Source: an uncultured Clostridia bacterium (GTDB lineage: Bacteria > Bacillota > Clostridia > TANB77 > CAG-508). From it: a stretch of DNA of 64,000 nt. The stretch is taken from NCBI GenBank assembly GCA_947630065.1, contig CANRGE010000003.1, forward strand, positions 17,792 to 81,791, in the 5' to 3' direction. Of this stretch, positions 1,429 to 59,202 are shown one piece after another. Under the pieces are notes generated by a model that saw only the letters and a program-made list of their open reading frames with translations, was not told the origin of the DNA and searched no databases. Numbering within the stretch: position 1 is the stretch's first letter; each line of letters opens with the position of its first letter. Position numbers and translations under genes: made by a program.

Positions 1429-2837
<1,409 letters not shown>

Positions 2838-4771: not shown

Positions 4772-4777
4772 TTGTAA

Positions 4778-4948
4778 GAACAAATCTCGCTTCGCGAGAC
4801 CTTTTCTCTACATCTTAAAGTTTGCTATCTAAATTCAAGGTCTCAAAGAAGCGCAAAGATTTGTTGACGCGAAAATTTACGAAGTAAATTTTCTGTGCAA
4901 TGTTATTTTTTATATAATAGGAAAGTAGAACTTTCCTATTATATAAAA
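4778..4948 (+). repeat. dispersed ~170-bp intergenic repeat, copy A
   Basis: Begins GAACAAATCTCGCTTCGCGAGACC and ends ATAATAGGAAAGTAGAACTTTCCTATTATATAAAA. It is near-identical to 9 other copies in the window. Confidence 0.9.
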
Positions 4949-5124
4949 TTGATTTTTCGAAACCTTTTTATGCATTTAATACTTATTAATCTTATTAAGG
5001 TTTCAGAAACTAAAATACTATATGTATAAAATTTACCACCACATTATATTTCATGTGGTGGCTTTCTTTTAATATTTATTCTAAAAATTTTTTTAAGAAT
5101 TTTCCTGTATAACTTTGTTCATTT

Positions 5125-7899: not shown

Positions 7900-8108
7900 G
7901 TTTAACTACATTCCTTTCATCCCAAAAAATAATTTTCCTATATATTTTTTAACAAAAACAACATAATTATATATGTCACATTTTTGTTTGTATCCCCTCA
8001 AAAAATTTGTTATATAATTTCCTTATTATACAACGAATTTATTATACTATATATTGTGCATTTAAACAAGTGTTTGTTGATATAAAATTTTAAAACTTTT
8101 ATATTATT

Positions 8109-8280
8109 GAACAAATCTCGCTTCGCGAGACCTTTTGTCTACATCTTAAAGTTTGCTATCTAAATTCAAGGTCTCAAAGAAACGTAAAGATTTGTTGACG
8201 CGAAAATTTACAAAGTAAATTTTCTGTGCAATGTTATTTTTTATATAATAGGCATGTAGAACTTTCCTATTATATAAAAA
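8109..8280 (+). repeat. dispersed ~170-bp intergenic repeat, copy B
   Basis: Same consensus. The terminal hairpin variant is GGCATGTAGAACTTTCC. Confidence 0.9.
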
Positions 8281-8284
8281 GAAT

Positions 8285-13956: not shown

Positions 13957-14065
13957 TCCTTTTATTGTGCTAATTATAGAACATATGTTTTCATTTTGTC
14001 AATAATATTTTTATATTTTCTTTTATTTCTATAAAAATATAATGTTTTATTGAAAATGATATATA

Positions 14066-14237
14066 GAACAAATCTCGCTTCGCAAGACCTTTTCTCTACA
14101 TCTTAAAGTTTGCTATCTAAATTCAAGGTCTCAAAGAAGCGTAAAGATTTGTTGACGCGAAAATTTACAAAGTAAATTTTCTGTGCAATGTTATTTTTTA
14201 TATAATAGGAAAGTAGAACTTTCCTATTATATAAAAA
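14066..14237 (+). repeat. dispersed ~170-bp intergenic repeat, copy C
   Basis: Same consensus with a CGCAAGACC variant. It is followed at 14238-14265 by the hairpin GAAGTCGCAATTGCGACTTC plus a T-run. Confidence 0.9.
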
Positions 14238-14272
14238 GAAGTCGCAATTGCGACTTCTTTTTATGTAATGCT

Positions 14273-28928: not shown

Positions 28929-28943
28929 TACTTCTCCCTTCTA

Positions 28944-29069
28944 GAACAAATCTCGCTTCGCGAGACCTTTTCCTACATCTTAAAGTTTACTATCTAAATT
29001 CAAGGTCTCAAAGAAGCGTAAAGATTTGTTGACGCGAAAATTTACAAAGTAAATTTCCCGTGCAATATT
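28944..29069 (+). repeat. dispersed intergenic repeat, copy D1 (3'-truncated), in tandem with D2
   Basis: Consensus from GAACAAATCTCGC through TTTCCCGTGCAATATTA, then an immediate restart of the element. Confidence 0.9.
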
Positions 29070-29238
29070 AGAACAAATCTCGCTTCGCGAGACCTTTTCT
29101 CTACATCTTAAAGTTTGCTATCTAAATTTAAGGTCTCAAAGAAGCGTAAAGATTTGTTGTCGCGAAAATTTACAAAGTAAATTTTCTGTGCAATGTTAGT
29201 TTTTGATATAATAGGAAAGTTCTACTTTCCTATTATAT
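29070..29238 (+). repeat. dispersed intergenic repeat, copy D2 (full length)
   Basis: Full consensus. It abuts the xerD terminator hairpin. Confidence 0.9.
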
Positions 29239-29239
29239 C

Positions 29240-29275
29240 AAAAAATGATACTGCTAAGCAGTATCATTTTTTTGT
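29240..29275 (-). terminator. intrinsic terminator of xerD
   Basis: ATGATACTGCTAAGCAGTATCAT hairpin with T7 on plus and T6 on minus. Confidence 0.6.
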
Positions 29276-29289
29276 GTAATTTTCTTTTA

Positions 29290-30171
29290 TTATGCTCTTG
29301 GATGAGCTTGTTTATATATATTCTTAATACTGTCATCTTGGAATTGCATATATACTTGTGTTGATGATATATCTGAATGGCCAAGCATTGTTTGTATAGC
29401 TTTTAAATCTGCTCCATTTTGTAAAAGATGTGTTGCAAATGAATGTCTTAGTACGTGTGGAGTTATGTCTTTTGTTATATGAGCTTGTTCTTTATAGTAT
29501 TTTACTATTTTCCAAAATCCTTGACGTGTTAATCTTTTTCCATTTGTGTTTACAAATAATGCTGTTTCTGCATCATTTTTTATAATTAATGGTCTCGCAT
29601 TTTGTATATATTCTTTTAATGCTTTTAATGATAATGTTCCTAATGGTATACGTCTTTGTTTTGAACCATTTTTGCAAGTTACGATTCCTTCTTTTAGATT
29701 AACATCTTCTAAATTTAATGATATTATTTCTGTAACTCTCATTCCTGTAGCATATGCAAATTCTAACATCGCTTTATCTCTAGTTCCTTTTAAATCTACA
29801 TCTTTAGGTTGTTCTAATAGTAATTCTATTTCTTGTGATGATAATACACTTGGTGCTTTTTTCTCTACTTTTGGAGATTGTATTTTTTCTGTAGGGTCTT
29901 TTTTTATTTTTCTATTACGTAATAAAAATTGATAAAATGATCTTATTGATGCTAAATTCCTTGATATTGTTGATGTCTTTTTGCCTATTTCTGCTAGATA
30001 ATCTAAATATTTTTTTATATCTGCATTTTCTACTTTTAAATAATTTATTTTATTCTTATTCACATATTCTTCATATTGCAAAATGTCTCTTCTGTATGAT
30101 TGTAATGTGTTTTCAGATAGTTTCTTGTCTTCTTTAATAAATTCTAAAAAATTGCTAATTTGTTTTTCCAT
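29290..30171 (-). CDS. xerD: site-specific tyrosine recombinase XerD
   Basis: 293 aa with HVLRHSFATHLLQNGADLKAIQTMLGHSDISSTQVY catalytic R-H-R-Y box. It is adjacent to spoIIM as in other Clostridia. Confidence 0.85.
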   Translation of the reverse strand: MEKQISNFLEFIKEDKKLSENTLQSYRRDILQYEEYVNKNKINYLKVENADIKKYLDYLAEIGKKTSTISRNLASIRSFYQFLLRNRKIKKDPTEKIQSPKVEKKAPSVLSSQEIELLLEQPKDVDLKGTRDKAMLEFAYATGMRVTEIISLNLEDVNLKEGIVTCKNGSKQRRIPLGTLSLKALKEYIQNARPLIIKNDAETALFVNTNGKRLTRQGFWKIVKYYKEQAHITKDITPHVLRHSFATHLLQNGADLKAIQTMLGHSDISSTQVYMQFQDDSIKNIYKQAHPRA

Positions 30172-30462
30172 TTTTTATAACATTCCTTTCCTTATCTCTC
30201 ACAAATCAATCTCAATTAGTTTCTACACTTGCAGTAAATTTTTATTATAGAAAACTATTATATATTAAATTTTCTATAGTTTCAAAACATTATGTATTAA
30301 TGTCTAAACTGTTGCTGTTAGTTAAGAATTAACATAACTTACTATGTTATATCAAATTATTTTAAAAAAGTAAATACTTTTTTAAATTTAATTTTTAAAT
30401 TTTATTGCTAAATTGCTTGCTTAAAAAATTAATTGCTTTAAGCAATAGAAATAATAAGATGA

Positions 30463-30633
30463 GAACAAATCTCGCTTCGCGAGACCTTTTCTCTACGTCT
30501 TAAAGTTTGCTATCTAAATTCAAGGTCTCAAAGAAGCGTAAAGATTTGTTGACGTGAAAATTTACAAAGTAAATTTTCTGTGCAATGTTATTTTTTATAT
30601 AATAGGAAAGTTCTACTTTCCTATTATATAAAA
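30463..30633 (+). repeat. dispersed ~170-bp intergenic repeat, copy E
   Basis: Full consensus with a CTACGTCTT variant. Confidence 0.9.
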
Positions 30634-30804
30634 AACGAGTTCGACCCTGAGAAGCGACAGCGCCATAATGCTTTTGCTAAGAATAGTGTGTCTCTTTACT
30701 TCTTAAAACCACGTTAACTAAAACGCCTTGGAGAACGGAATTTTTTAGCTTATTATTTCTATTGTTATTTCTATACAACTACTTATTTTATCCTATTAAT
30801 TGCA

Positions 30805-39937: not shown

Positions 39938-41035
39938 TTATTTTTTGTCTTCGTTATTGTCTTTTTCATGTTGTAAATTAAATATTGTTTTTTGGTTTTC
40001 TATTTCTGCTCTAAGTTCTTCTTCAGTTGGTAGATATAATTTATATTTTGAAGCAAATAGTTGCTCATTACCTTTTAAAATAGAATATTTTGCTATATCG
40101 CTATCAGTTTCTGAACATAATAAAATTCCAATTGTAGGATTATCTTCTTTAGATTTTTTTAGTTCATCATACATTCTCACATACATATCCATTTGACCTA
40201 TATCTTGATGTGTTACTTGAGTAGTTTTTAAATCTATCAATACAAAACATTTTAAAATATAGTTGTAAAACACTAAATCAATAAAGTAATCTCCCTTTTC
40301 TGTACGAATATGTTGTTGCCTTTCTACGAAAGCATAACCTTTTCCAAGTTCCATTAAAAATTTCTGTAAATTGTTTATTATGCTAGTTTCTAATTCTGTT
40401 TCAGTAAACTCACTATCTAATGAATATCCTAAAAATTCAGCTATTACTGGATTTTTTACAAATTCTAATTTGTTTAATAAATAGTGTTCTCTATTTTTTT
40501 CTTGCATTTCTTTAATTACAGGTTCTTTAACTTGTGATTTTAAAAGCCTATAATAATATTGTGAAGAAATATTTCTTTGCAAAGTTCTAGTACTCCACAT
40601 TTGGTCAAAAGCTTCTTTTTCATACCAATCTCTAGCTTGTTTATCAAAAACTTGTAATAATGTTCTATAATGTGTCCAAGACAACAACATTCCAGATTGT
40701 CGACTCAGTGCGTCGACAATTTGTGGAAAATTTTTGTAAAAACTTAAAAATCGATACAAATTACTTCTATCATAGCCTTTACCATATTCTTTTGTAAGCT
40801 CTTTAGATAATTTTTTTATTACTTCTATTCCGTAATCTGCTCTATCATTTCCTTTTAATTCTTCTTCAGCAATTCTATAACCAATAAGCCAATTTCTTTC
40901 TACTAATGCTATATTCACAGATTTATAAGCATAATCTCTTGCTGATTCAATAATAGAACATACATCTTCTAATACATTATCTGTTTTTTGATATTTGATA
41001 ATCATTGAATTATTGTTTGTTTTTTGTAAATCCAT
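39938..41035 (-). CDS. YhcG-family (DUF1016) PDDEXK nuclease-fold protein
   Basis: N-terminal DUF1016 region (ERNWLIGYRIAEEEL...YGKGYDRSNLYRFLSFY) and a C-terminal PD-(D/E)xK-like core (FIDLVFYNYILKCFVLIDLK). Confidence 0.7.
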   Translation of the reverse strand: MDLQKTNNNSMIIKYQKTDNVLEDVCSIIESARDYAYKSVNIALVERNWLIGYRIAEEELKGNDRADYGIEVIKKLSKELTKEYGKGYDRSNLYRFLSFYKNFPQIVDALSRQSGMLLSWTHYRTLLQVFDKQARDWYEKEAFDQMWSTRTLQRNISSQYYYRLLKSQVKEPVIKEMQEKNREHYLLNKLEFVKNPVIAEFLGYSLDSEFTETELETSIINNLQKFLMELGKGYAFVERQQHIRTEKGDYFIDLVFYNYILKCFVLIDLKTTQVTHQDIGQMDMYVRMYDELKKSKEDNPTIGILLCSETDSDIAKYSILKGNEQLFASKYKLYLPTEEELRAEIENQKTIFNLQHEKDNNEDKK

Positions 41036-41038
41036 TAT

Positions 41039-41584
41039 TTACCTACTTTCTTCTTTTAAATTAAACTTGTTTATCATTTCTTTAGTTGCAAAACCATTAT
41101 GTTCTTTTACTCTTTCTAAAAATACAATTCCATCTAAATGGTCACACTCGTGTTGTATATCTCTTGCAGTAAAACCTTTTACCTGTTTAATAATTTTCTC
41201 TCCTTTTTCATTATAATATGTTACTTCAATATTTGTATATCTTTCTACTTTTCCTCTTATTGAAGGAACACTTAAACAACCTTCAAATTCAATTTCTGTA
41301 TCTTCTAATATTTTTTTCCATGTTGGATTTATCATCACTGTAGTTGGTACTTCTTCACAATTTTTATATGTACATTTTTCTTTATCTACCTGAATAATTA
41401 CAATTCTTTTATTTATTCCTACTTGTGGTGCTGCAATTCCAAATCCATCTGTAAAATTTAATGTTTCTTTTAAATCATCAATTTCTTCTAATATTTCTTT
41501 ATTGATGTTTTTAATATCTACTTCTTGACATTTTATAGTTAAAATTGGATCTCCTACTTCTCTTACTTTCAAAACTTTACCCAT
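41039..41584 (-). CDS. def: peptide deformylase
   Basis: GIAAPQVG, EGCLSVP and HECDHLDG are the three PDF motifs. Confidence 0.9.
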   Translation of the reverse strand: MGKVLKVREVGDPILTIKCQEVDIKNINKEILEEIDDLKETLNFTDGFGIAAPQVGINKRIVIIQVDKEKCTYKNCEEVPTTVMINPTWKKILEDTEIEFEGCLSVPSIRGKVERYTNIEVTYYNEKGEKIIKQVKGFTARDIQHECDHLDGIVFLERVKEHNGFATKEMINKFNLKEESR

Positions 41585-41807: not shown

Positions 41808-42294
41808 TATTTTCCTCCAAGCAATTTAAAGATAACAATATTATGTGTTGATTATATCAAAATTATTGATGCTTTTCAATTAAAAATTTGTACTTCCTTG
41901 ACATTTACATAAAATAAATGTATTTATAATACACTGAAAAATTAAATATAAATGACAAACATAAATTATTATCACAAGATTAGATAATTTATGAGCTTTC
42001 CGCTAGGAGCCCACGACATCTTTGCAAAACGTAGTTTTGAAAGTGTCATAGTGGGTTACATACTTTTGCGAAAAAGTTATGTAACAGCTATCTTCGTTCA
42101 CTTATTTGCTACCTACTGAAAGGCAACTATTTAAAAAAATGGCAAGAATATAGCAACGTAGCACTTCAATACTATAAAAAATGAATAATTAATAGTTGTT
42201 AATAGTATATAAGTGCTCTTATTTCCTATTTACAATTATTAATTATTCATTCTTACTATTCTCTTTTAACTGCGAATTGTTAAATTCGCACTTA

Positions 42295-42347
42295 TGGTGC
42301 GGATGAAGGGACTTGAACCCCCACGTCGTTGACACTGGTTCCTAAGA
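42295..42347 (-). repeat. distal att direct repeat (orphan 3' fragment of tRNA-Leu)
   Basis: Identical to the 3' 53 nt of the tRNA at 50222-50274. The sequence diverges right after CCTAAGA. Confidence 0.85.
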
Positions 42348-42557
42348 AATATTACGATTGTTGACATTTAAATTAAAACTAACTTTTTTGTTTAAGTAAT
42401 TGTTTGAGTAAAAAAAATTAGCAAAAATTAATATTAATTAAAAATGAACAAATTTTTGTTTTTATATTGATTTTTTATATTTTTTATTATATATTGTCTA
42501 CCATAGGAAATTGAGAATAAGCAGATGTGGTCTACCTCCACTAAGGAGGTGATGCGT

Positions 42558-42680
42558 ATGATAGAAATACAAATATTAATTGCAACAATATACATATTAT
42601 ATTATTCATTAATTGGAATAACTATCATTACGTTTGCCTTAATTATTGCAATAGTAATAATTATTAGCAAACAAAAATAG
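42558..42680 (+). CDS. candidate type I toxin-like small hydrophobic peptide (40 aa)
   Basis: AAGGAGGTG SD 8 nt upstream. The peptide is MIEIQILIATIYILYYSLIGITIITFALIIAIVIIISKQK. Downstream are the hairpins ATAGACACATC...GATGTGTCTAT at 42688-42728 and AAACCACGTTTGTGGTTT. Confidence 0.4.
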   Translation: MIEIQILIATIYILYYSLIGITIITFALIIAIVIIISKQK

Positions 42681-43039
42681 CAAAAAAATAGACACATCTG
42701 TAAACTTACCTGGTTTGATGTGTCTATCAAACAATTTAGGTAAACCACGTTTGTGGTTTCTCTATTTCCTATTTTTATTTTACTATGATATTTTGCAAAT
42801 GTCAAATATAATTGACTAAAATTAGAACAATTTAATTAAAAAGCACTTGTTCAAACATACATAGCTTTTGTGAGCTTTGATTAGACGAAGTCTAGCTAAG
42901 CTAACAAAAGCCATAGAAAAATATGAGCCAGTTGGCGAACATTTTTCTATGTAATGAAAGATATTGAATTATATTTTGCGTTAGCAAAATTAATTGAATA
43001 TCTTTCACACAAAAGGATTATTAAGGAAAACTTTAGTTG

Positions 43040-43090
43040 TCCTTAATCACATGGAACTTGCTTGCAAGTTCTAGTGTGTTAGAACTTCAA
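43040..43090 (+). promoter_or_regulatory. oriT of the MobV relaxase (pMV158-like)
   Basis: Overlapping inverted repeats GAACTTGCTTGCAAGTTC and GTTCTAGTGTGTTAGAAC containing TAGTGTG/TTA, about 100 bp upstream of mob. The pMV158 nic sequence is GTGTG/TT. The predicted nick lies between 43078 and 43079. Confidence 0.5.
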
Positions 43091-43176
43091 AAAAGTTTAT
43101 TTAAGAAAAATCAAAAGGGGTATTTATTTTTTAGTAAGCCTACAAAGGCTATCTTATAAAAAAGGAATATTTAAAA

Positions 43177-44127
43177 ATGAGCTATGCTATTATTAGAAAT
43201 GCAAATTATAAAAAAGATAATTTAGCAGGACTATATAAACATAACGAAAGAAAAAATACTAATTATTCTAATAAAGATATTAATAAAAATAATTCGATAA
43301 ATAATTATTCAATTAAACAATGTAATACCACATATTCAAAAGCTATTAAAAATTTAATTAATGAAAATAATTTAAAATGTAGAATAACAAGTTATACTAA
43401 TGTTGCTTGTGAATTTATTATTACATCTAATAGAGAATTCTTTGAAAAAATTGGAACAGAAGAAACAAAACGTTATTTTAAAACAGCTTATGATTTTGTT
43501 GCTAACTATAAAAATTTAGGAGAAAAATACATATTATCTGCAAAAGTACATATGGATGAAAGTACTCCCCATTTACATTTAGTTTTCGTTCCAGTAATGC
43601 ATACAAAAGACAAAACTGGTAAAGAAATAACTAAAATTGCTTGTAGTGAATATTGGAAAGGCAAAGACAGTTACAGAGCATTACAAGATAATTTTTATAA
43701 ATATGTTACTGAAAACGGTTTTGATTTACAACGCGGTAAATCAACAAGTGTTGAACATTTATCTACCGAAAAATTAAAACAAATAACAAATTATGATAAT
43801 ATAAAATATGAAATTACTAACGAAACAATACAACCCTTAGAAACTAAAAATACAAGCTTAATATTAGCACAAAATAAAAGTTTAATAGAATATACAAATA
43901 AATTAAAAATGCAACTAGCAAAATCTTATTCTGCTATTGAAAAAGTATCTAAATTGCAAAATGAAAATACTAGATTAATACAAGAAAATAATGATTTAAA
44001 GCAAGAAAATTATAAATTAAAAGACTATATATCAAAAACATTTGAAGTAGTAAAGCATTTATTTGATTTTCCTATTGATAGGTTTAAAAGAATTGTAGAT
44101 AATTTTGTAAAAAATATGGAAAAATAA
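43177..44127 (+). CDS. mob: MobV-family (Mob_Pre) mobilization relaxase
   Basis: MobM-like N-terminus MSYAIIRNANYKKDNLAGLYKHNERKN...NKDIN, an HxH motif (HLHLVFVPV) and a C-terminal coiled coil. Confidence 0.8.
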   Translation: MSYAIIRNANYKKDNLAGLYKHNERKNTNYSNKDINKNNSINNYSIKQCNTTYSKAIKNLINENNLKCRITSYTNVACEFIITSNREFFEKIGTEETKRYFKTAYDFVANYKNLGEKYILSAKVHMDESTPHLHLVFVPVMHTKDKTGKEITKIACSEYWKGKDSYRALQDNFYKYVTENGFDLQRGKSTSVEHLSTEKLKQITNYDNIKYEITNETIQPLETKNTSLILAQNKSLIEYTNKLKMQLAKSYSAIEKVSKLQNENTRLIQENNDLKQENYKLKDYISKTFEVVKHLFDFPIDRFKRIVDNFVKNMEK

Positions 44128-44240
44128 ATATAGCACATATAAGAATTATATTATATTCTTATATGTGCTTATTGTTACTGTTTTTCTTCCATTTTATATA
44201 TTGCTTGCTATTGTTATTCTTTAATAAATAGAATTTATCA

Positions 44241-45209
<969 letters not shown>

Positions 45210-45301
45210 TTGTAATCGCTCCTTTTTTATTCTTATGGTTTAATTATATATTTCTATTATTTTATTGTCAATTGTATTAATTAAAATAATAACTTCATTT
45301 T

Positions 45302-45496
45302 TTATTCTAGCATATTTTGTATATATTCTAGTTGCTCTTTAGTTAATCTATTATTTACAACAGCTAATCTTAATAAAGCTTTTATATTTTCTTTTTTCAT
45401 TACTTTATCATTTCCATTTGCTTTCAATTTCACATATTCTACTACTTCATCAAATATATAAAATGGAACATTAAAATCTAAATTTAATCTATTCAT
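45302..45496 (-). CDS. hypothetical protein (64 aa)
   Basis: ORF only, on the element. Confidence 0.3.
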   Translation of the reverse strand: MNRLNLDFNVPFYIFDEVVEYVKLKANGNDKVMKKENIKALLRLAVVNNRLTKEQLEYIQNMLE

Positions 45497-45626
45497 ATTA
45501 TTATTTCTTCCTACAACTTTTTATCATATTTAGCCTTAATAGACTGTACTCTATAATTTTAGCATATAAATAATTATAAAATCAATACTATAAATATAAA
45601 TTATTTTTGGTAAAGGAAATTTTGAT

Positions 45627-45866
45627 ATGAATTTTAATAAATATAATAATAACTATAATATCATAAGCAAAAAATTAAAAGAGTTTAGAACAAAACGCAA
45701 TATTTCTCAAGAACAACTTAGTAATAAATTATCTTTATTAGGTATTACATTATATCAATCTGACATATTCAAAATAGAAAATAATCAAAGGACTGTACGA
45801 GATTTTGAATTATGGGGTATTACAAAAGTTTTAGATATTAAAGCTGAAGAACTATTTAAACCTTAA
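45627..45866 (+). CDS. XRE-family HTH regulator (79 aa)
   Basis: KLKEFRTKRNISQEQLSNKLSLLGITLYQSDIFKIENNQR is HTH_3. Confidence 0.7.
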   Translation: MNFNKYNNNYNIISKKLKEFRTKRNISQEQLSNKLSLLGITLYQSDIFKIENNQRTVRDFELWGITKVLDIKAEELFKP

Positions 45867-45885
45867 TTTATAGGTTAAATAGTTC

Positions 45886-46057
45886 TTTTTATACAATAGG
45901 AAAGTTCTACTTTCCTATTATATAAAAAATAACATTGCACAGAAAATTTACTTTGTAAATTTTCGCGTCAACAAATCTTTACGCTTCTTTGAGACCTTGA
46001 ATTTAGATAGCAAACTTTAAGATGTAGAGAAAAGGTCTCGCGAAGCGAGATTTGTTC
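45886..46057 (-). repeat. dispersed ~170-bp intergenic repeat, copy G (reverse orientation, inside the mobile element)
   Basis: Reverse complement of the consensus from TATACAATAGGAAAGTTCTACTTTCC through GGTCTCGCGAAGCGAGATTTGTTC. Confidence 0.9.
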
Positions 46058-46060
46058 TAT

Positions 46061-46765
46061 TTACACATTAAATATATCTAAATATAAAGCATTTTGCTTA
46101 TTTAATATTTCTTGTTCATTTTCATTTAACTTTAATTTTTCAATCATTTCATTTGTAAATTCTAAATTCTTCTTTGAAAAATAACATTTTCTTAAACTTG
46201 GCTCACACTTTGCATTTGTTCCAAAATAACCACCTAACATTAAACCATCTATACCATTGCAAATATTTATTTCAAGCACTGAAACATCTACACGACTACT
46301 TGTTGGCTTATAATTCTCCATTACAACAAATACAATTTCATCATTACATATTAAGTAACCCTCTGAGTATATTCTTTTATCGTGATAATCTACAAATTTT
46401 GCTTTACAAATATTTTGTTTTTGTTCTAGTTCTAATATATACTTATCTGGTGCAAATTTATTAGTTCTAAAATTATATGCGTTAAAATACACATATAGCT
46501 TATCTACTTTAAAAGGATTTCTTGATCTATTATTTTGAGTTGTTCTATTTGTATCATTTCCATATAAATCTGCTTCATATATTCCTAATTCTTCACAAAT
46601 TATACTTATATCTCTTACATCTGGTAAAATTTCGCCTTTTTCATATCTACTTATAGTAGCTTTGTTTTTATTAAGCACTGTAGCTATATTTTCTTGGCTC
46701 AAACCTTTTTGAATTCTATAATTTTTTAGTCTTTCTCCAAAATCTTTACTATTAAATTCAGCCAT
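46061..46765 (-). CDS. XRE-family HTH regulator with the same C-terminal domain as 15240-15956
   Basis: HTH LSQENIATVLNKNKATISRYEKG. The C-terminal ...GGYFGTNAKCEPSLRKCYFSKKNL is alignable with the chromosomal paralog. Confidence 0.7.
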   Translation of the reverse strand: MAEFNSKDFGERLKNYRIQKGLSQENIATVLNKNKATISRYEKGEILPDVRDISIICEELGIYEADLYGNDTNRTTQNNRSRNPFKVDKLYVYFNAYNFRTNKFAPDKYILELEQKQNICKAKFVDYHDKRIYSEGYLICNDEIVFVVMENYKPTSSRVDVSVLEINICNGIDGLMLGGYFGTNAKCEPSLRKCYFSKKNLEFTNEMIEKLKLNENEQEILNKQNALYLDIFNV

Positions 46766-47482
46766 AATAGCACCCCCTATTAACTATTTTTATTATACTA
46801 TTCATTTATAAATTAAGCAATATTAAATCGTTATAAGCCTTTATATATTTGATATTTAAAGCTTTTTATAGTATAATATATTTAATACCTATTTTTTGGT
46901 AAGTCTTTATATAATTTACCTAAGCGTTAGCTTAATTGTAACATAAATTGTTATTTTTAAGCTACGCAAGTGGCTTAAATTATATAGAATCTCCTCTTAT
47001 TTGGACTTTCTAATTTATGTGCAATAAAAAATAGAGACTATTAGAAAGGAGAAATAAGAATGATACTATCAAAACACAAAATTATAGCATTCCCTCGGTG
47101 GTAGTGGAGGTTGTTAAGACTAAAGGAAAGAGATTTTTATTCTCTTTCCTTTTTATATTATTTTTGTGTTGCATTTAATGCAACATTTTATACTTTTTTA
47201 TATTTCTAATTATTTTTCTCACTTATTTTACCTAAATTTAACTAAAAAAATATATTTATACCCTAAAAATTGCATATTACGCAACTTTCGTTGCATTGTG
47301 TGCAATTTTACTATCTTTTGCTTTGTTTACATAACAATACTATAATATAATTGTAAGCTACTAGAACGATTATATGTATAAAAATTCATTTCACTTTTTA
47401 CTTCTAAATACTCATTTCTTTCTAAGCTTATTAGTTCGAACAAATTAAAGATTTCTAGAAATCTAATATTTTAATAGGAGAT

Positions 47483-47839
47483 TTGCCTATGAGAAATTTT
47501 AAAAATATTAGACCTACAAATGAAAAAATCAATAAGGAACTAGAAAATGTTTTTTATCAAAATCAATTAAATGACTTAGATAACATTGATGTTGATATTA
47601 ATCATCTAGAAAAAATCTTCACAAATGAAACTTATTATTTAGCAATGAAAATCGTTCCATTGCTTGAAAGAAAAGTGTTATATCTTGCATATGTTGAGAA
47701 TGTTCGATTAAACGATATTTGCAGAAGATTAAAATTACCAAAGAAACAAGTTATTGTACTAAAGAATAAAGCAATAATACATTTTAAGAATAATTTAAAC
47801 ACTCTTACTAAAGCTACAGGTGGTGGCAAAAATGTTTAA
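47483..47839 (+). CDS. sigma-70 region-4-like regulator (Tn916 Orf7-like)
   Basis: 118 aa. LYLAYVENVRLNDICRRLKLPKKQVIVLKNKAIIHFKNNL resembles a sigma region 4 HTH. It sits upstream of xis-int. Confidence 0.5.
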   Translation: MPMRNFKNIRPTNEKINKELENVFYQNQLNDLDNIDVDINHLEKIFTNETYYLAMKIVPLLERKVLYLAYVENVRLNDICRRLKLPKKQVIVLKNKAIIHFKNNLNTLTKATGGGKNV

Positions 47840-48389
47840 ACATAAAAAGAAAGAAAAAAATACTTTAGCAAAAAACATTACCACTAAAACACAACATAAT
47901 TTTTCAATAAGAGTTCTTTATAAGAAAACAAATAAAGTACCAGAAGTAAAAATAATACCCAATATAAAAAGATTAAAAAAAGCAATAATAAAAAATTCAC
48001 TAGATATTATTCCATACGAAAATGTATTTATAATTTGTTCTAATCAAAAATTAAATATTAATTCATCTCCTAATATACTTCTACCTTTAAAAACCATTTA
48101 TGGAGATTTTATCTTAGTAAAAATTAATAGAAAAGAACGAGAATTTGAAAGTCTATCACAAGAAGACATTATGTGGTATACACAAGACTTAATAAACAAA
48201 AGTAATATTCAAAATACTTTAAGCGAAACAAAAAGACCTAGTGTTAAAAACTTTATGGACTTTTACGAAAGAGATTTTGAAAAAGGAAATAATGGTAAAA
48301 CAGTAAACTATGAAACTACAATAATAAACTCTTTAACAACAATAGAAATGACATTAATAAAATTATTGAAAGGGAAAAATAAAAAATGA
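47820..48389 (+). CDS. hypothetical protein (189 aa)
   Basis: ORF overlapping its neighbours by a few bp (operon-like). Confidence 0.4.
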   Translation: MVAKMFKHKKKEKNTLAKNITTKTQHNFSIRVLYKKTNKVPEVKIIPNIKRLKKAIIKNSLDIIPYENVFIICSNQKLNINSSPNILLPLKTIYGDFILVKINRKEREFESLSQEDIMWYTQDLINKSNIQNTLSETKRPSVKNFMDFYERDFEKGNNGKTVNYETTIINSLTTIEMTLIKLLKGKNKK

Positions 48390-48646
48390 ATAATATAAAT
48401 GAAAAAATAATAGATACAAAAGAAGATTCAAACGAACAAATAGTAATAAATTATTTATCAAAAATAAGTAATCCTTTTATTACCCTATCAGTGCAAGATG
48501 TTTCAAAAGATTTACATATAGGAATAAATCAAGCTTATGAATTATTTAAACAAAAAGATTTTCCAACAATATCAATTGGAAAGCGAAAAACTATTACATT
48601 GGCAGCATACCTATTATGGAAAATGAACAAGAAAGGCGGTGTATAG
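48386..48646 (+). CDS. xis: excisionase-like small HTH protein
   Basis: 86 aa, ISVQDVSKDLHIGINQAYELFKQKDFP..., immediately upstream of and overlapping int. Confidence 0.55.
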   Translation: MNNINEKIIDTKEDSNEQIVINYLSKISNPFITLSVQDVSKDLHIGINQAYELFKQKDFPTISIGKRKTITLAAYLLWKMNKKGGV

Positions 48647-49844
48647 TATGCGTCAAAAAGGTCATAGTGAAGGATATGTCTATTATAATAAACAGAGAAA
48701 AACTTTTAACGCACAATATAGTGAATATGACATAAAAACTGGAGATATAAAAAGAAAAACTAAGAGTTTTAAAACCGAAGAAGATGCAAAAAAATATTTA
48801 AGTAGCATTATGTATCAAAAAGAAAATCCTCTTTATATAGAACATAATGGAATACCATTATGTGAAGTAATGAAATCAAATTTAAGATTAAAGTTAGATA
48901 CAAACCAAATTTCAGAAGCACAATTTACTAGAATAGAAGACACAATCGTAAAAATAGAAAAAAGTGCATTAGGAAAAAAGAATATAGATGAAATACTTTC
49001 AGAAGAATTACAAGCTTATTTAAACTCTTTAAAACATTTAAGTAATTCTACTATAACAAAAGCATATCAACAACTTAATCAAGCATTTAAAATAGCAATA
49101 AATAAAGGGTATTTAGTTAAAAACCCTATGGTAGATGTGATAAAACCAAAAAGTTTGAAAGAAGATAAAATTGTACGAGCTTTAACAGTAGAAGAACAAC
49201 AAGTTTTTACCGATTATCTTTTAAGTACTGATTTAAAAACTTGTAAATACAAAAATGTGTTTCTAATACAAATGTATATGGGCTTAAGGGTAGGCGAAGC
49301 ATTAGCACTTACTACACATGATATAGATTTAAAAAATAAAAAAGTAAATATTCATAGAACACTAACTACTGATGGCAATAGATATGTAGTTATGGGAAAG
49401 AAAACAAAAAATTATGCTGCTAAACGCATATTACCTCTTCCCGACTTTTTATTTCCTTATATTATAGAACAAATGCAAATAGCAAATAATCAAATTAATA
49501 ATGATGAAAAATTATTATTTAAACCCAAATATTCAAATTATACTAAAAGAAAAAATGTAAATTATGAATTGAAACAAATATTTAATAATCTTTTAGGAGT
49601 TACTGACATTACTTCTCATAATTTAAGACATACGTATGGAACTCGTTGTATTGAATCTGGAATGGCTCCTGTCGTTGTTCAAAGATTAATGGGACATAAA
49701 GATATAAGTGTAACTTTAAACACATACACTTCTGTTCTTGATAAATTTAAAGAAAGTGAAATTGATAAAGTTAATCAGTACTATATTAATGAAAACTTAA
49801 TATCTGCCCACAACAATAATATAAAACAATTAGAAGATAGGTAA
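48639..49844 (+). CDS. int: tyrosine-type site-specific integrase
   Basis: C-terminal HNLRHTYGTRCIESGMAPVVVQRLMGHKDISVTLNTYTSV, with the R...HxxR...Y catalytic pattern, and a SAM-like N-terminal domain. Confidence 0.85.
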   Translation: MYSMRQKGHSEGYVYYNKQRKTFNAQYSEYDIKTGDIKRKTKSFKTEEDAKKYLSSIMYQKENPLYIEHNGIPLCEVMKSNLRLKLDTNQISEAQFTRIEDTIVKIEKSALGKKNIDEILSEELQAYLNSLKHLSNSTITKAYQQLNQAFKIAINKGYLVKNPMVDVIKPKSLKEDKIVRALTVEEQQVFTDYLLSTDLKTCKYKNVFLIQMYMGLRVGEALALTTHDIDLKNKKVNIHRTLTTDGNRYVVMGKKTKNYAAKRILPLPDFLFPYIIEQMQIANNQINNDEKLLFKPKYSNYTKRKNVNYELKQIFNNLLGVTDITSHNLRHTYGTRCIESGMAPVVVQRLMGHKDISVTLNTYTSVLDKFKESEIDKVNQYYINENLISAHNNNIKQLEDR

Positions 49845-50221
49845 ACATTTTTTATGCATAAATATAATTAGTTTGAGTTTATACAAACAATTTTTAACAG
49901 TTGTTTGTATAAACTTTTATTTAAAATTTGTAAAATTGCTTATTTTTCAAATATTATTTCAAAAAATCGTGTTTGAGTAGTTATTTTTTAAAAAATGCTC
50001 GAAAGTATATATTCCATGCATATTACAGCCAAAAAAAATTGTTTGAGTAAATGTTTGAAAAAAATAAAAATTAAGAAAAATTATAAAAAATGATAATCAG
50101 TGAAAACTTAACAATATCAACGGTTACAGAGAATTATAGGTAAATTTTGATTTTTTTAAATTAAAGACAAAAAAATACAGCATTTATTTTTGTATAAACG
50201 CTGTATCTCGCTTGTTTCTAA

Positions 50222-50305
50222 GTGGTGCGGATGAAGGGACTTGAACCCCCACGTCGTTGACACTGGTTCCTAAGACCAGCGCGTCTGCCAGTTCCGCCAC
50301 ATCCG
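50222..50305 (-). tRNA. tRNA-Leu (anticodon UAG)
   Basis: rc reads GCGGATGTGGCGGAACTGGCAGACGCGCTGGTCTTAGGAACCAGTGTCAACGACGTGGGGGTTCAAGTCCCTTCATCCGCACCA. The anticodon loop CTTAGGA gives TAG. It has a long variable arm (class II) and an encoded CCA. Confidence 0.85.
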
Positions 50306-50400
50306 CATTTCTATTGACAAGGTATATATTAGCATATTTCAACGTTTACTGTCAATAGAATTTTTACATTTTTTCAATTTTGTTGAGCAATGTTATTATT

Positions 50401-51205: not shown

Positions 51206-51913
51206 TTATTTTTTCTCTGTTATTTTACAATTTTCTTTTTCTTCTATGCAATTTTTAGGTATATCTTTAAAGCTTAAATACCAACTCATTCCATTGCTAT
51301 TTGCTTCAATTTCTTCATTTCGTGCTTGTAAAGCATCAAAGGTTTGTGGCGCTGGTACAATTACTGGTTGATTTGGTATCCAATTTGCTGGTGTTGAACC
51401 TTTAGCACAGTCTGCTATTTGTAATGCTTGAACTATTCTTAAAATTTCTGGAATAAATCTTCCTATATTCATTGGATATATTAAAACAGTTTTTACAACT
51501 CCTTGTGGATCAATAATAAATACATTTCTAACTGTTTCCGTATTACTAACATCATTTGATATCATTCCGTATTTTCTTGCAATTTGTCCATTCCTGTCTG
51601 CTATAATAGGAAATGATACTTTTATTCCTGTTTTACAATATATATCATATATCCATGCAAGATGTGATGCATTACTATCTACACTTAATCCTAATAATTC
51701 TGTATTTAGTTGTTTGAAATATGTATGTGCCTTTGTGAAAGCTATAATCTCTGTTGTACATACAGGGGTAAAGTCTCCCGGATGTGAAAATAGAACCAAC
51801 CATTTTCCTCTGTAATTATTTAATGATATATCTCCCATAGTAGTTTGTGCTTCAAATTCTGGAGCAAGCATACCTATTTTTACATTACCATTCATCATAA
51901 CTTCATAATCCAT
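51206..51913 (-). CDS. peroxiredoxin (AhpC/TSA, Prx6-like)
   Basis: Peroxidatic motif FTPVCTTE and a length of 235 aa. Confidence 0.8.
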   Translation of the reverse strand: MDYEVMMNGNVKIGMLAPEFEAQTTMGDISLNNYRGKWLVLFSHPGDFTPVCTTEIIAFTKAHTYFKQLNTELLGLSVDSNASHLAWIYDIYCKTGIKVSFPIIADRNGQIARKYGMISNDVSNTETVRNVFIIDPQGVVKTVLIYPMNIGRFIPEILRIVQALQIADCAKGSTPANWIPNQPVIVPAPQTFDALQARNEEIEANSNGMSWYLSFKDIPKNCIEEKENCKITEKK

Positions 51914-52094
51914 AAAAAATAACTCCCTTCAAATTTTTGTATATAATATGAAAGGTGTTTAGATGTTGTTACTAATACAAAATTAAGAATTATGAAACTA
52001 AATAATTCATTTATATCCAGTTTTTTATCTTATAAAACTACAGAACTAGAAACTAAGCAATAGTTTCTAGTTCTGTGGTTTTGTACAAAAAAAT

Positions 52095-52550: not shown

Positions 52551-52686
52551 ATTTTACCTCCTTCTATAATTACTGTCGTTTACTAGTTATCTATGTCTAT
52601 TCCCATAAGGAAGTTATATAATTAAGTCTAGCATCCACTAGAATATCATTATTATACTATATTTTCATATAATCTGCAATGTTATT

Positions 52687-52775
52687 TATATAATAGGAAA
52701 GTTCTACTTTCCTATTATATAAATAACATTGCACAGAAAATTTACTTTGTAAATTTTCGCGTCAACAAATCTTTA
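52687..52775 (-). repeat. dispersed intergenic repeat, copy H (truncated, lacks the GGTCTC hairpin module)
   Basis: rc consensus from TATATAATAGGAAAGTTCTACTTTCC to GTCAACAAATCTTTA only. Confidence 0.85.
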
Positions 52776-53624: not shown

Positions 53625-53861
53625 TAAGAATTTAGGAGTCTATATAGACTCCTTTTTTCTTTAATATGTATTATTCATCGTAGTTTGTGTTCAAATTCTG
53701 GAACAAGCATACCTATTTTTACATTGTCATTCATATAACTCTTCATAATCCATAAAAAATAACTCCCTTCAAATTTTTGTATAAATATTAAAGGTTATTA
53801 TTTAGTAACAATAAATAATAAATAGAGAAATATTTTATAAAAAATACTTCTCTATTTAAAA

Positions 53862-55518
53862 CTATACATATTGTTGTTTATTTAATACTACAATTCCTGC
53901 AAGAGCTCCTATCATTATAAATATTAATATAGTATCTAAATCATCTTCACCAGTTTTTGGTACATCATCTAATTCTCCTGTTTGATGTTCTTGTGTTTTT
54001 ACTTCTAGTGAATTAATAGCCTCATTAATTGCCTTTTCCATAGTATCTACTTCGCCTTGTTCTAAAATATTTTTACCTCTAACTACTGCTGATATCGCTT
54101 TTTCAACAGCACTAAAGTCTTTATAATCATCTTTATTTAAATTGTTTGCTTTTGCTATTGCTTCATCTACTTTACTATAATCTGCATCTAGATATTCAAG
54201 CGAATTAATTGCATTAATAATTGCTTTTTCCATAGCATCTACTTCATTTTGTTCTGAAATATTTTTATTTTTAACTACTGCATTGATTGCTACCTCAACA
54301 GCACTAAAATCTTTATAATTAGATTTATTCAATTTATTTGCTTTTGCTATTGTTTCATCTACTTTGCTATAATCCGCATCTAGATATTCAAGCGAATTAA
54401 TTGCATCAATAATTGCTTTTTCCATAGCATCTACTTCATTTTGCTCTAAAATATTTTTATTTTTAACTACTGCATTGATTGCTACCTCAACAGCACTAAA
54501 ATCTTTATAATTAGATTTATTCAATTTATTGGCTTTTTCTATTGCTTTATCTACTTTACTATAATCTGCATCAGCATATTTTATTTCATTACCATTTCCT
54601 GCAGCTACTTTAAATACTTCTTTTTTAACTCCATTAGCATTAAAACTTTCAAAACCATTTATTGTAATAACACCATTATTTGTATATACTCCATAATCTC
54701 CAGAAAGAGTAATGTTTCCTCCATTAATAACTATATTTTTTCTTTTTGTTTGACCAGCAGAAATTGCAGGAGTGTCGGCATCTTGAGTACTAAGAACTAC
54801 ATTACCTCCAGTAATAAATACTCCATCTTCTGTATCTTCTGTATATAGGCTATTTCCTGGTACATGAATTGCTGCTGAATTTGCTTTAATATCAACATTT
54901 CCACCAGTAATTTTCACTTGTGATAACACATAAACTCCTGATGCAGTATAATTTTGACTTCCATAAGTCATATTTTCAGTATTAATTTTAAGATTTCCAC
55001 CACTTATATTTAAATTACCATCAACCCAAAATCCACCTGTACTATTTATTGTACCAGATAAAATATTTAAGTTGTTTACATAATGAATTGTATTTCCCAA
55101 ATTATCTCCACCGATTACCACTTATCTCTGTTATTTCAAGATTTAATATGGCATTAGCTTTTCCTTCAAATGTTAGGCTTCCACCCATACCACCATTTGC
55201 ATAAATTACAGATTTTTTTTGTGATTTTAATGTATTTATTCCTTCAAATATAATTTTTATGTTATCTGATTTTTTTAATTTAATACATGGGTTTGAATTA
55301 TTATCATCTTTTACATCAAAGTTTGCATTTCTTAAAGTTAATATTTTGTTTTCATTATCCCATTTCCATCCTTTATCTGCGAGTTTATCTTCTGTTGCAT
55401 GCTCTGTTAAATCCAATGTTGTAGTTTGTGTTTCTATATTTGCTGCTGAAACAACATTTGGTACTAAGAAAAATAGAAATATCATAAATAAAATATTAAA
55501 TATTTTTGATTTAAACAT
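53862..55518 (-). pseudogene. sortase-anchored surface protein (beta-helix-like head, 3 FIVAR-like repeats, VPKTG sorting signal) split by a frameshift at about 55102-55121
   Basis: The signal peptide ORF 55102-55518 (MFKSKIFNILFMIFLFFLVPNVVSA) and ORF 53862-55121 are in different frames and overlap by 20 nt. The C-terminus reads VPKTGEDD plus a TM segment and a short tail. Confidence 0.5.
53990..54560 (-). repeat. about 186-bp tandem coding repeats (~2.8 copies) encoding FIVAR-like 62-aa modules
   Basis: Near-identical DNA units containing CATCTAGATATTCAAGCGAATTAATTGCAT(T/C)AATAATTGCTTTTTCCATAGCATCTAC recur with a period of about 186 bp. Confidence 0.8.
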
Positions 55519-58979: not shown

Positions 58980-59008
58980 CCTTTCATTATAAAATATTTT
59001 TTCAAATG

Positions 59009-59180
59009 GAACAAATCTCGCTTCGCGAGACCTTTTCTCTACATCTTAAAGTTTGCTATCTAAATTCAAGGTCTCAAAGAAGCGTAAAGATTTGTTGACG
59101 CGAAAATTTACAAAGTAAATTTTCTGTGCAATGTTATTTTTTTATATAATAGGAATGTAGAACTTTCCTATTATATAAAA
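59009..59180 (+). repeat. dispersed ~170-bp intergenic repeat, copy I
   Basis: Full consensus between trxA and the membrane protein gene. It abuts the trxA terminator hairpin ATAGGAATGTATAAGTACATTCCTAT. Confidence 0.9.
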
Positions 59181-59202
59181 ATAGGAATGTATAAGTACAT
59201 TC

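Follow-up and report, generated by a model that had tools for sequence, protein, structure and literature searches.

A probable integrative mobilizable element in the tRNA-Leu(UAG) gene of an uncultured Clostridia bacterium

The stretch of DNA analysed here, referred to throughout as the window, comprises 64,000 nucleotides of contig CANRGE010000003.1 from an uncultured Clostridia bacterium (assembly GCA_947630065.1, positions 17,792 to 81,791). The segment of the window from 42295 to 50275 is very probably an integrative mobilizable element (IME) of approximately 7.9 kb that occupies the 3' end of a tRNA-Leu(UAG) gene; our confidence in this reading is limited because neither an empty site nor an excision product was found. 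An IME in this tRNA gene, with its own integrase, an excisionase-like (Xis-like) protein, a MobV relaxase with an origin of transfer (oriT) and no mating-pore genes, had been proposed in a first-pass annotation of the same DNA, and every sequence test that we ran agrees with it. As far as sequence can tell, the island has each of the features that characterise an IME in the sense of Guedon et al. 2017 (PMC5704250). It is an element of a kind already known, one of a large family of ~8-kb IMEs that to date has come only from uncultured Clostridia.

Boundaries and target site

The island is bracketed by a direct repeat of 53 nt, the two copies of which, at 42295-42347 and 50223-50275, are identical at 53/53 positions and enclose approximately 7.9 kb. 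The repeat corresponds to the 3' 53 nt of tRNA-Leu(UAG), CCA included. One copy, attL, lies within an intact tRNA-Leu gene on the minus strand (50223-50306; called as tRNA-Leu(tag) by ARAGORN and with 55 bits by Rfam), which is the sole tRNA gene of the window, and the other, attR, forms the distal junction. The perfect repeat at the tRNA 3' end had already been recognised in the first-pass annotation and stands, except that the coordinates given for its second copy were off by one base. The repeat halves occur nowhere else in the 64-kb window even when three mismatches are allowed, with 0 matches in 100 shuffles, and a search of the window for further degenerate tRNA-Leu repeats of the kind that signal tandem islands found none. 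Just downstream of the tRNA-Leu gene there is a strong predicted terminator on the minus strand (50172-50209), which is borne by the element.

A repeat of this kind could also arise falsely in a chimeric contig of a metagenome-assembled genome (MAG). The source is indeed metagenome-assembled, and where this species was assembled from other samples the contigs broke within the island. We nevertheless find an assembly artefact scarcely credible, because both junctions are reproduced in independent assemblies of several samples (loci L001-L005, L018 and L019): the junction of flank, attR and mobV was assembled independently in L001-L003 and L018, and that of int, tRNA and flank in L004 and L005. 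The contigs of other samples break only at true repeats, namely the direct repeat itself, an interspersed repeat of ~180 nt and a paralogous N-terminus shared by genes for (TH)n proteins. In L019 (sample ERZ27249337) attR carries a single G>T at the position equivalent to 42309 of the window, GAAGTGAC against GAAGGGAC; this could be either drift in a non-functional copy or an error at a contig end.

Integrase, excisionase-like protein and candidate arm sites

The enzyme that would be responsible for insertion is a tyrosine integrase (Int) of 398 aa encoded on the plus strand at 48648-49844. It matches Phage_integrase (2.4e-25), Arm-DNA-bind_4, SAM_5 and the PHROG_1 integrase family (1.6e-62), and the closest solved structure is that of Tn1549 Int (6EMY, E 9e-16). 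Degeneracy of the integrase on closer alignment had been set beforehand as a ground for abandoning the IME; what the alignment with 6EMY revealed was an intact catalytic set in which all residues align, comprising the arginine of GLRVGE, the HxxR motif in HNLRH, the histidine of GHKD and the tyrosine of LNTY. With Int of Tn916 (taken from pCF10) the identity is 26% over 301 residues (E 6e-21), and the N-terminal arm-binding regions of the two are unalignable. It had been suggested earlier that int overlaps the Xis-like gene. Public gene calls place the int start at the ATG at 48648, where an identical 398-aa product in the protein database (P0001) likewise begins, and with this start there is no overlap between the two genes. 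Overlaps are found further upstream in the operon, of 8 nt between the genes for a sigma-like protein and a DUF3846 protein and of 4 nt between the DUF3846 gene and xis.

The Xis-like protein (86 aa, 48386-48646, plus strand) was recognised by its fold and position. Its best Pfam match is HTH_17, which is sub-threshold (E 0.031), and its orthologues show the same weak match. A single-sequence AF2 model was uninformative (pLDDT 46), whereas the model built from an alignment of 79 homologues reached a pLDDT of 83 and has a winged topology of the beta-alpha-alpha-beta-beta type. The matches of a Foldseek search of BFVD with this model included phage proteins annotated as excisionase, HTH-domain protein and PrtN (probability 1.0, E 2.7e-4 to 3e-2); against the PDB it gave generic winged-helix matches alone (E>0.04). 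A profile of the family found no match among PDB sequences and did not recover 1Y6U, the Xis of Tn916. Direct comparison of the profile with the verified Xis-Tn916 (1Y6U) by hhalign gave an alignment in the expected register with E 0.024, but a probability of only 2%. The gene lies directly upstream of int in every relative examined. From the modelled fold together with this invariant position we infer that the 86-aa protein acts as a recombination directionality factor.

The ends of the island also contain short repeats that may be integrase arm-type sites. Near attR there are two candidates on the plus strand, TGTTTAAGTA and TGTTTGAGTA (42389-42410), and two more exact copies of TGTTTGAGTA lie near attL, starting at 49970 and 50040 (49970-50049, plus strand). 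This 10-mer occurs as three exact copies in the 64 kb (42401, 49970 and 50040) against 0.17 expected, all three just inside the island ends and in one orientation, and there is a further copy with one mismatch at 42389. The block near attR is 77-81% similar to DNA immediately inside the tRNA-side end of three sister elements (L007, L011 and L015) and, in 2/3 of the sisters examined (L007 and L011), to DNA immediately inside the far end as well. The TGTTTGAGTA repeats are therefore candidate arm-type sites, and their binding by Int would fit the Arm-DNA-bind_4 domain of the enzyme.

MobV relaxase and oriT

The mobilization gene of the island, mobV (43177-44127, plus strand), encodes a relaxase of 316 aa of the MOBV1 type. 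It scores well above the curated cutoffs for both Pfam Mob_Pre (2.5e-43, 148.6 bits against 25.5) and NCBIfam MobV NF041497 (131.9 bits against 100). Alignment with the structure of pMV158 MobM (4LVI, E 3.3e-33) indicates that the relaxase, like the integrase, is not degenerate on closer inspection: His22 is retained in an HxxR motif (KHNER), as is the metal site HxDE..PHxH (HMDESTPHLH).

Approximately 100 nt upstream of mobV a set of overlapping inverted repeats (43053-43087, plus strand) was recognised as a candidate oriT by comparison with pMV158, the oriT of which we verified at 3570-3609 of the 5540-bp Streptococcus pneumoniae plasmid NZ_MZ396393.1. The left hairpin is formed by GGAACTTGC-tt-GCAAGTTC and the right one by AAGTTCTA-GTGTGT-TAGAACTT at 43066-43087. 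The core TAGTGTGTTA (TAGTGTG/TTA) is identical to the nick region of pMV158, and MobV is predicted to nick between G43078 and T43079. This 10-mer core alone is not significant in a 64-kb window; it gains its weight from where it lies, from the hairpins around it and from being conserved. It is the sole GTGNGN with inverted flanking arms in the island, and in L007-L010 an oriT is likewise placed ~100 nt upstream of mobV, where the sequence of the left hairpin has changed and its arms are still complementary. A search for the oriT motif in L011, a sister at greater distance, did not reveal a convincing hairpin. As in the pMV158 MobM/oriT system, there is a 6-nt GTGTGT loop with 8-bp arms and a second hairpin that shares an arm. 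The MobV with a pMV158-like oriT upstream that had been described from the letters alone is thus borne out by the family scores, the identical nick core and the common hairpin layout. The differences from pMV158 are that the sequences of the hairpin arms are unrelated, that the C-terminal half of MobV is divergent, and that the island is integrated and lacks genes for rolling-circle replication.

Gene content

Open reading frames (ORFs) of at least 40 aa that were judged to be coding were scanned against the Pfam, NCBIfam and PHROG families. All of the genes listed in the first-pass annotation were recovered by the ORF and family scans, that is, those for MobV, the (TH)n protein, two XRE-family regulators, the sigma-like protein, the Xis-like protein and the integrase, and two that it had missed were added. 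The first of these encodes the DUF3846 protein of 185 aa (47832-48389, plus strand; Pfam 1e-6, 29.3 bits against a cutoff of 27.5), which is kept in sister elements, and the second is an ORF of 64 aa (45302-45496, minus strand) with no family match in these scans. The smaller of the two XRE regulators has 79 aa (45627-45866, plus strand; HTH_3 7e-6). A bidirectional terminator is predicted between mobV and the (TH)n gene (44132-44169), and another terminator after int (49875-49916, plus strand).

The ten island ORFs scanned gave no match to type IV secretion system (T4SS), VirB4, VirD4/TcpA coupling-protein or pilin families, in agreement with the earlier statement that the island contains no conjugation machinery genes. 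Replication families were not matched by the scanned ORFs either. Some of the contents might suggest a phage satellite or defective prophage, in which Int, Xis and XRE would link the element to phage induction and MobV would be an incidental passenger: its module of Int, Xis and XRE has matches among phage families, DUF3846 has been recorded in sets of phage sequences, and the fold of the Xis-like protein matches phage excisionases. Such an origin seems very unlikely, given that capsid, terminase, packaging and replication genes are absent from the family scans of the island ORFs and that MobV and oriT are conserved in the core of the family. Nor is there any near DNA match to phage records; when the DNA of the whole island was searched against plasmids and phages, only the tRNA part was matched.

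A family of related elements

Relatives of the island are numerous. There are more than 2500 homologues of Int, the best 120 of which have 69-75% identity; their sources are without exception metagenomes or MAGs, and those with a name are labelled Clostridia bacterium. Int, MobV and Xis have the same length as their orthologues. One sister element, with the integrase P0050, is identical to the island at 71% of residues in Int, 79% in MobV, 68% in Xis, 60% in the sigma-like protein, 50% in a DUF3846-like protein and 45% in the larger XRE regulator. This sister is sequence-identical in L007, L008 and L010, and both of its flanks differ among the three. On the right the identical stretch ends inside a tRNA-Pro(tgg) gene, and its left limit coincides exactly with 13 nt, ATGGTCGAGGTGA, that repeat the 3' end of tRNA-Pro. 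Other relatives adjoin tRNA-Met, and in one of them MobV has moved to a position between DUF3846 and xis. The sister shared across contexts, together with the relatives at tRNA-Pro and tRNA-Met, defines a family of modular IMEs of ~8 kb that target tRNA 3' ends, and by this comparison mobility has been shown for a family of elements closely related to the island.

Two further observations concern the sisters at tRNA-Met. At the far boundary of L011 there is a 126-nt copy of the 3' end of int (2131-2256 against 11034-11159, 75% identical), which may have been left behind by a tandem insertion in the past. Beyond the tRNA-Met gene in both L011 and L015 there are T4SS pilin genes, and in L011 also TraC- and VirB4-like genes; from these T4SS genes we draw the suggestion that an integrative and conjugative element (ICE) may adjoin the tRNA-Met sister IME and may serve as its helper.

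For the island itself several points weigh against the interpretation as a mobile IME. An empty tRNA-Leu site, an attP circle or an attB was not found: in look-ups of exact matches to five flanking or island proteins all contigs with flank proteins were occupied or ended in a repeat, junction patterns gave 0 matches in genome and metagenome contig collections, and the 170-aa flank protein had no relatives in the genome contig collection. The comparison with strains lacking the insertion, which had been put forward as a check, therefore returned only occupied or truncated contigs. A host repeat of ~180 nt is inserted in the island and the attR of one sample differs by one base, both of which are compatible with long residence, and the GC content and composition of the island are not distinct from those of the ~24% GC host. 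In addition, the sequence matches behind the Xis-like and sigma-like assignments are below threshold, and no conjugative helper element was identified within the 64-kb window.

The missing empty site or circle in the contig searches, the inserted host repeat, the attR variant and the fully ameliorated composition would also be expected of a fixed, immobile remnant, either a decayed ICE of which the end for integration, regulation and mobilization is left, or an old IME no longer able to excise. We regard such a remnant as unlikely. The core genes are full length and their catalytic residues intact, the repeat is perfect, and the compact unit recurs in many genomes, with one sister copy identical in three contexts. 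This recurrence of an ~8-kb unit and the identical sister point to an autonomous small element rather than a product of ICE decay, and an IME that is probably still mobile remains the reading that we prefer.

Regulatory module and comparison with Tn916

The larger XRE-family regulator, of 234 aa (46061-46765, minus strand; HTH_3 1.8e-11), has a conserved uncharacterised C-terminal domain (CTD). It is kept in sister elements at 29-86% identity and its 90% cluster has 201 members. This XRE+CTD protein is encoded divergently from the int operon and is the probable repressor. The operon begins with the sigma-70 region-4-like protein of 116 aa (47489-47839, plus strand), for which all matches are sub-threshold (sigma70-ECF 4e-4, WhiG 1.6e-4, Sigma70_r4 0.017); its L011 orthologue matches Sigma70_r4 at 1.6e-5.

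Between these two genes, in the intergenic region 46766-47488, a scan for promoters, terminators and palindromes delimited a regulatory region on the plus strand (46849-47305). It includes a near-consensus promoter, P1 (46849-46877), a leader ORF of 14 codons, MILSKHKIIAFPRW (47060-47104), followed by an intrinsic terminator (47122-47152), and three palindromes of the form TTGCA-N5-TGCAA (at 47169, 47270 and 47291). The region is 74% conserved with L015, where codons for Phe and Pro in the leader differ by synonymous changes and the terminator stem differs in sequence with its pairing retained. It is possible that the leader ORF and terminator form a leader-peptide attenuator and that the palindromes are operators.

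The regulation of the island had been called Tn916-like, and this holds for the arrangement of the genes but not as far as homology of the regulators is concerned. The order of divergent HTH regulator, sigma-like gene, small gene, xis and int is that of Tn916 (pCF10/Tn925, locus L026), and the leader ORF with its terminator recalls the attenuation logic of Tn916. However, the sigma-like protein gave no BLASTP alignment with Orf7 at E<=100 and no tblastn match on any plasmid, and the match of the island XRE protein to Orf9 was not significant (E 0.12). The island further differs from Tn916 and Tn1549 in its site-specific insertion in a tRNA gene with a 53-bp repeat, where those elements use AT-rich sites with coupling sequences, and from Tn916 in having MobV as relaxase and not MobT/Rep. 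Tn6218, a non-conjugative relative of Tn916, has a Rep/MobT protein and AT-rich targets (PMC3914685). On sequence comparison the island is outside the Tn916 regulatory family in the homology sense, and its Int is related to Int-Tn916 only distantly.

A type I toxin-antitoxin-like locus beside attR

Close to attR the first-pass annotation had noted a candidate small toxin. This proposal is strengthened by a structured mRNA, a sequestered Shine-Dalgarno sequence, a candidate antisense small RNA (sRNA) and a conserved peptide family. The peptide, MIEIQILIATIYILYYSLIGITIITFALIIAIVIIISKQK, is hydrophobic, has 40 aa, and is encoded on the plus strand at 42558-42680 behind an AAGGAGG Shine-Dalgarno sequence; its family has 17 representatives with 62-90% identity. 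The toxin-like mRNA (42502-42775, plus strand), which contains an inverted repeat, has a predicted minimum free energy of -83.2 kcal/mol, compared with -45 +/- 4.3 in shuffled sequences (z -8.9). In this fold the Shine-Dalgarno sequence is paired with an upstream CCUCC and a long helix closes the 5' end onto the 3' end. On the minus strand promoter and terminator prediction indicates a candidate antisense (antitoxin) sRNA of ~90 nt (42681-42805), with the promoter TTGACA-17-TAAAAT (42805-42777, scan score 11/12) and a terminator stem at about 42690-42729 followed by a U-run. The predicted fold of the sRNA (-25.9 kcal/mol, z -4.2) has a terminal hairpin plus the U-run, and the sRNA is convergent with the peptide mRNA and complementary to its 3' untranslated region. 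Rfam at relaxed thresholds gave chance-level matches only (OrzO-P at 29.8 bits against 60, and SNORA18). Taken together, these features suggest a type I toxin-antitoxin-like locus with a putative toxin.

In Bacillus subtilis, bsrG/SR4 is a type I toxin-antitoxin system in which the two RNAs overlap at their 3' ends. The island locus shares with it, and with the type I systems of Clostridioides difficile, the short hydrophobic peptide with a charged tail, the predicted structured mRNA with its Shine-Dalgarno sequence masked and the candidate convergent antisense sRNA, and differs from known type I systems in having no sequence or Rfam match. The C. difficile systems stabilise mobile elements of that organism (PMC7699646), and carriage on a mobile element is a further likeness to them.

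The (GT)n-containing cargo gene

The cargo of the island is a pseudopilin-like surface protein of 322 aa encoded on the minus strand at 44241-45209 (44241-45271 with its promoter). The gene has a perfect sigma-70 promoter, TTGACA-17-TATAAT, at 45271-45243, and its product a prepilin-type N-terminus (Pfam N_methyl, sub-threshold, E 1.2e-3). A (GT)16 tract at 45148-45179 encodes a (TH)5 leader, and the tract is in frame, which confirms the in-frame (GT)16 surface-protein gene that had been reported at this position. At full length the protein is unique in the database. Its homologues share the N-terminal 20-35% alone and have many different C-terminal domains, and 87/119 of them have a (TH)2-7 leader.

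Comparison of the homologues suggests how the tract might act. Alleles that are >90% identical occur in three forms: one with a long leader, MNKELECLEAV(HT)n, one with a short leader, MRLY(TH)n, which starts from another ATG in another frame, and a third represented by N-terminally truncated gene calls. Within clusters of homologues >90% identical the number of TH/HT dipeptides in the leader varies from 3 to 5; this polymorphism in tract length was seen in those clusters, the cargo gene of the window being present on a single contig.

The window also contains a chromosomal paralog (1429-2836, minus strand, start 2836) with 85% nucleotide identity to the island gene over the first ~200 nt. Its tract, (GT)14 at 2780-2807, is frameshifted, so that translation would meet a stop after 26 codons; the frame that continues downstream has a TGA three codons before the (GT)14 tract. 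The C-terminus of this paralog, judged by eye, is FGE-sulfatase-like. A (GT)16 tract in frame in one gene and a (GT)14 tract out of frame in the other is what slipped-strand phase variation would be expected to leave.

It had been argued from the resemblance of two island genes to chromosomal ones that related elements had visited this chromosome before, and this argument is not supported by closer comparison. What the (TH)n paralog has in common with the island gene is confined to the N-terminal module, a feature widespread in the lineage, and the similarity between the chromosomal XRE and that of the island is confined to the HTH domain (35% over 93 aa). We put forward, as a proposal whose chances we judge to be evenly balanced, that the cargo and its chromosomal paralog belong to a large and apparently undescribed family of uncultured Clostridia in which a (GT/AC)n tract within the sequence coding for the leader would act as a three-state switch of translation, and that the IME would deliver an ON copy, equipped with a consensus promoter, into a genome whose own copy is OFF. 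The three states, proposed as part of the same reading, would be two alternative start frames with different leaders, plus OFF, and all three forms do occur among cargo-homologue alleles >90% identical. A literature search for a paper describing a (GT)n leader switch of such proteins found none.

Proposed life cycle

The steps that follow are all read from sequence and together form a model of how the element might function. The XRE+CTD protein would repress the rightward operon of sigma-like, DUF3846, xis-like and int genes through the TTGCA-N5-TGCAA palindromes, and the leader-peptide attenuator would act as a second check on the operon. Upon derepression, Int and the excisionase-like protein would recombine attL with attR within the 53 bp of identity, Int being positioned by the TGTTTGAGTA arm repeats at both island ends. 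Excision would release a circle and leave the tRNA gene intact, because a copy of the tRNA 3' end is part of the island. MobV would then nick oriT at GTGTG/T (43078/43079) through His22, and the complex of relaxase and DNA would leave the cell through a conjugative element resident there, which would supply both coupling protein and mating pore. In the recipient, Int would insert the circle into tRNA-Leu. The type I toxin-antitoxin-like locus beside attR may help to stabilise the island.

Relationship to known mobilizable elements

Tyrosine-integrase IMEs at tRNA genes, and IMEs with MOBV1 relaxases, have been described in streptococci and gut Firmicutes (PMC5357655, PMC5704250, PMC12084326, PMC5090054). 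The island resembles MOBV1 IMEs such as IMESag-rpsI of Streptococcus agalactiae and the Faecalibacterium superfamily (PMC5090054, PMC5704250, PMC12084326) in being small and in having its own integrase and a MobV with an oriT. Like the MOBV1 IMEs of Firmicutes it lacks a coupling protein and mating pore, and would hence be dependent on a helper, and it shares with them a variable cargo. It differs from them in the lineage of its integrase and in its target, which in the island family is the 3' end of tRNA-Leu, tRNA-Pro or tRNA-Met. It also has no Rep_trans/MobT partner, and carries a distinctive module of XRE+CTD, sigma-like and DUF3846 proteins. Its host is an uncultured Clostridia lineage of ~24% GC.

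A tyrosine integrase and the same target are found in streptococcal IMEs at the 3' end of tRNA-Leu, which have integrases of the Tyr_1 and Tyr_8 families (PMC5357655). In streptococcal IMEs closely related integrases switch between tRNA genes, and the direct repeats may be long or short (PMC5357655). MobV is uncommon in the streptococcal IMEs that were surveyed, being present in 11/144, most of them paired with a MobT relaxase (PMC5357655).

Interspersed repeat and flanking regions

The host repeat that interrupts the island, between the two convergent XRE genes (45883-46063, minus strand, inverted), is a structured element of ~180 nt. It has at least eight occurrences in the window, 95-99% identical, and is not present in sister elements. 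The island copy matches six or more of the others at 97-99% identity. The other sites are at 4774-4952, 8105-8283, 14062-14240, 28939-29245 (tandem), 30459-30637, 52651-52775 (partial) and 59005-59183. Three long hairpins are predicted in the repeat, the last with its loop in both orientations (GTAGAAC and GTTCTAC), and there is no match in Rfam. Metagenome assemblies break at this repeat, including at the island copy. It may be an element like a miniature inverted-repeat transposable element (MITE) or a repetitive extragenic palindromic (REP) sequence, or else a family of small RNA genes. A tyrosine recombinase of the XerC/XerD type (29290-30171, minus strand; Phage_integrase 4.9e-48, SAM_1) adjoins its two tandem copies, for which the tandem repeat spans 28942-29199.

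To the left of the island, on the minus strand at 39938-41584, there are genes for a peptide deformylase and a DUF1016/YhcG protein. Homologues of this deformylase that are >90% identical, with a DUF1016/YhcG neighbour, are found elsewhere inside Tn4451-like mobilizable transposons (L021-L025) that have a large serine recombinase, TnpV and TnpW, and in one case Mob_Pre. These relatives were considered as possible empty sites for the island and rejected, their contexts inside Tn4451-like elements (TnpX, TnpV, TnpW) being unrelated. The left flank may itself be derived from a mobile element. Between an ORF of 68 aa and attR there is a non-coding stretch of 475 nt (41820-42294) with a GC-richer block at ~41990-42130, a 37-nt inverted repeat at 42177-42254 that is 86% complementary, and no match in Rfam.

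On the other side of the island the first ~60 coding nt of a peroxiredoxin gene (51206-51913, minus strand) and the DNA upstream of them are duplicated 1.84 kb away with 93-100% identity (51851-51943 and 53690-53783). An ORF of 419 aa (53862-55121) contains three tandem units of 192 nt (54003-54580) that are 82-88% identical and give rise to protein repeats of 64 residues.

Significance

IMEs are abundant vehicles of gene flow that are still poorly catalogued, and the island documents a large modular family of them with tRNA-Leu, tRNA-Pro and tRNA-Met as targets. Its anatomy, comprising att sites, arm sites, oriT nick, attenuator and operators, is usable as a template for the annotation of metagenomes. 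The island itself is ordinary, and the part most worth following is the family of cargo proteins with the proposed (GT)n switch. If this switch and its delivery by the IME are true, they would connect horizontal transfer to a phase-variable cell surface among gut-type anaerobes.

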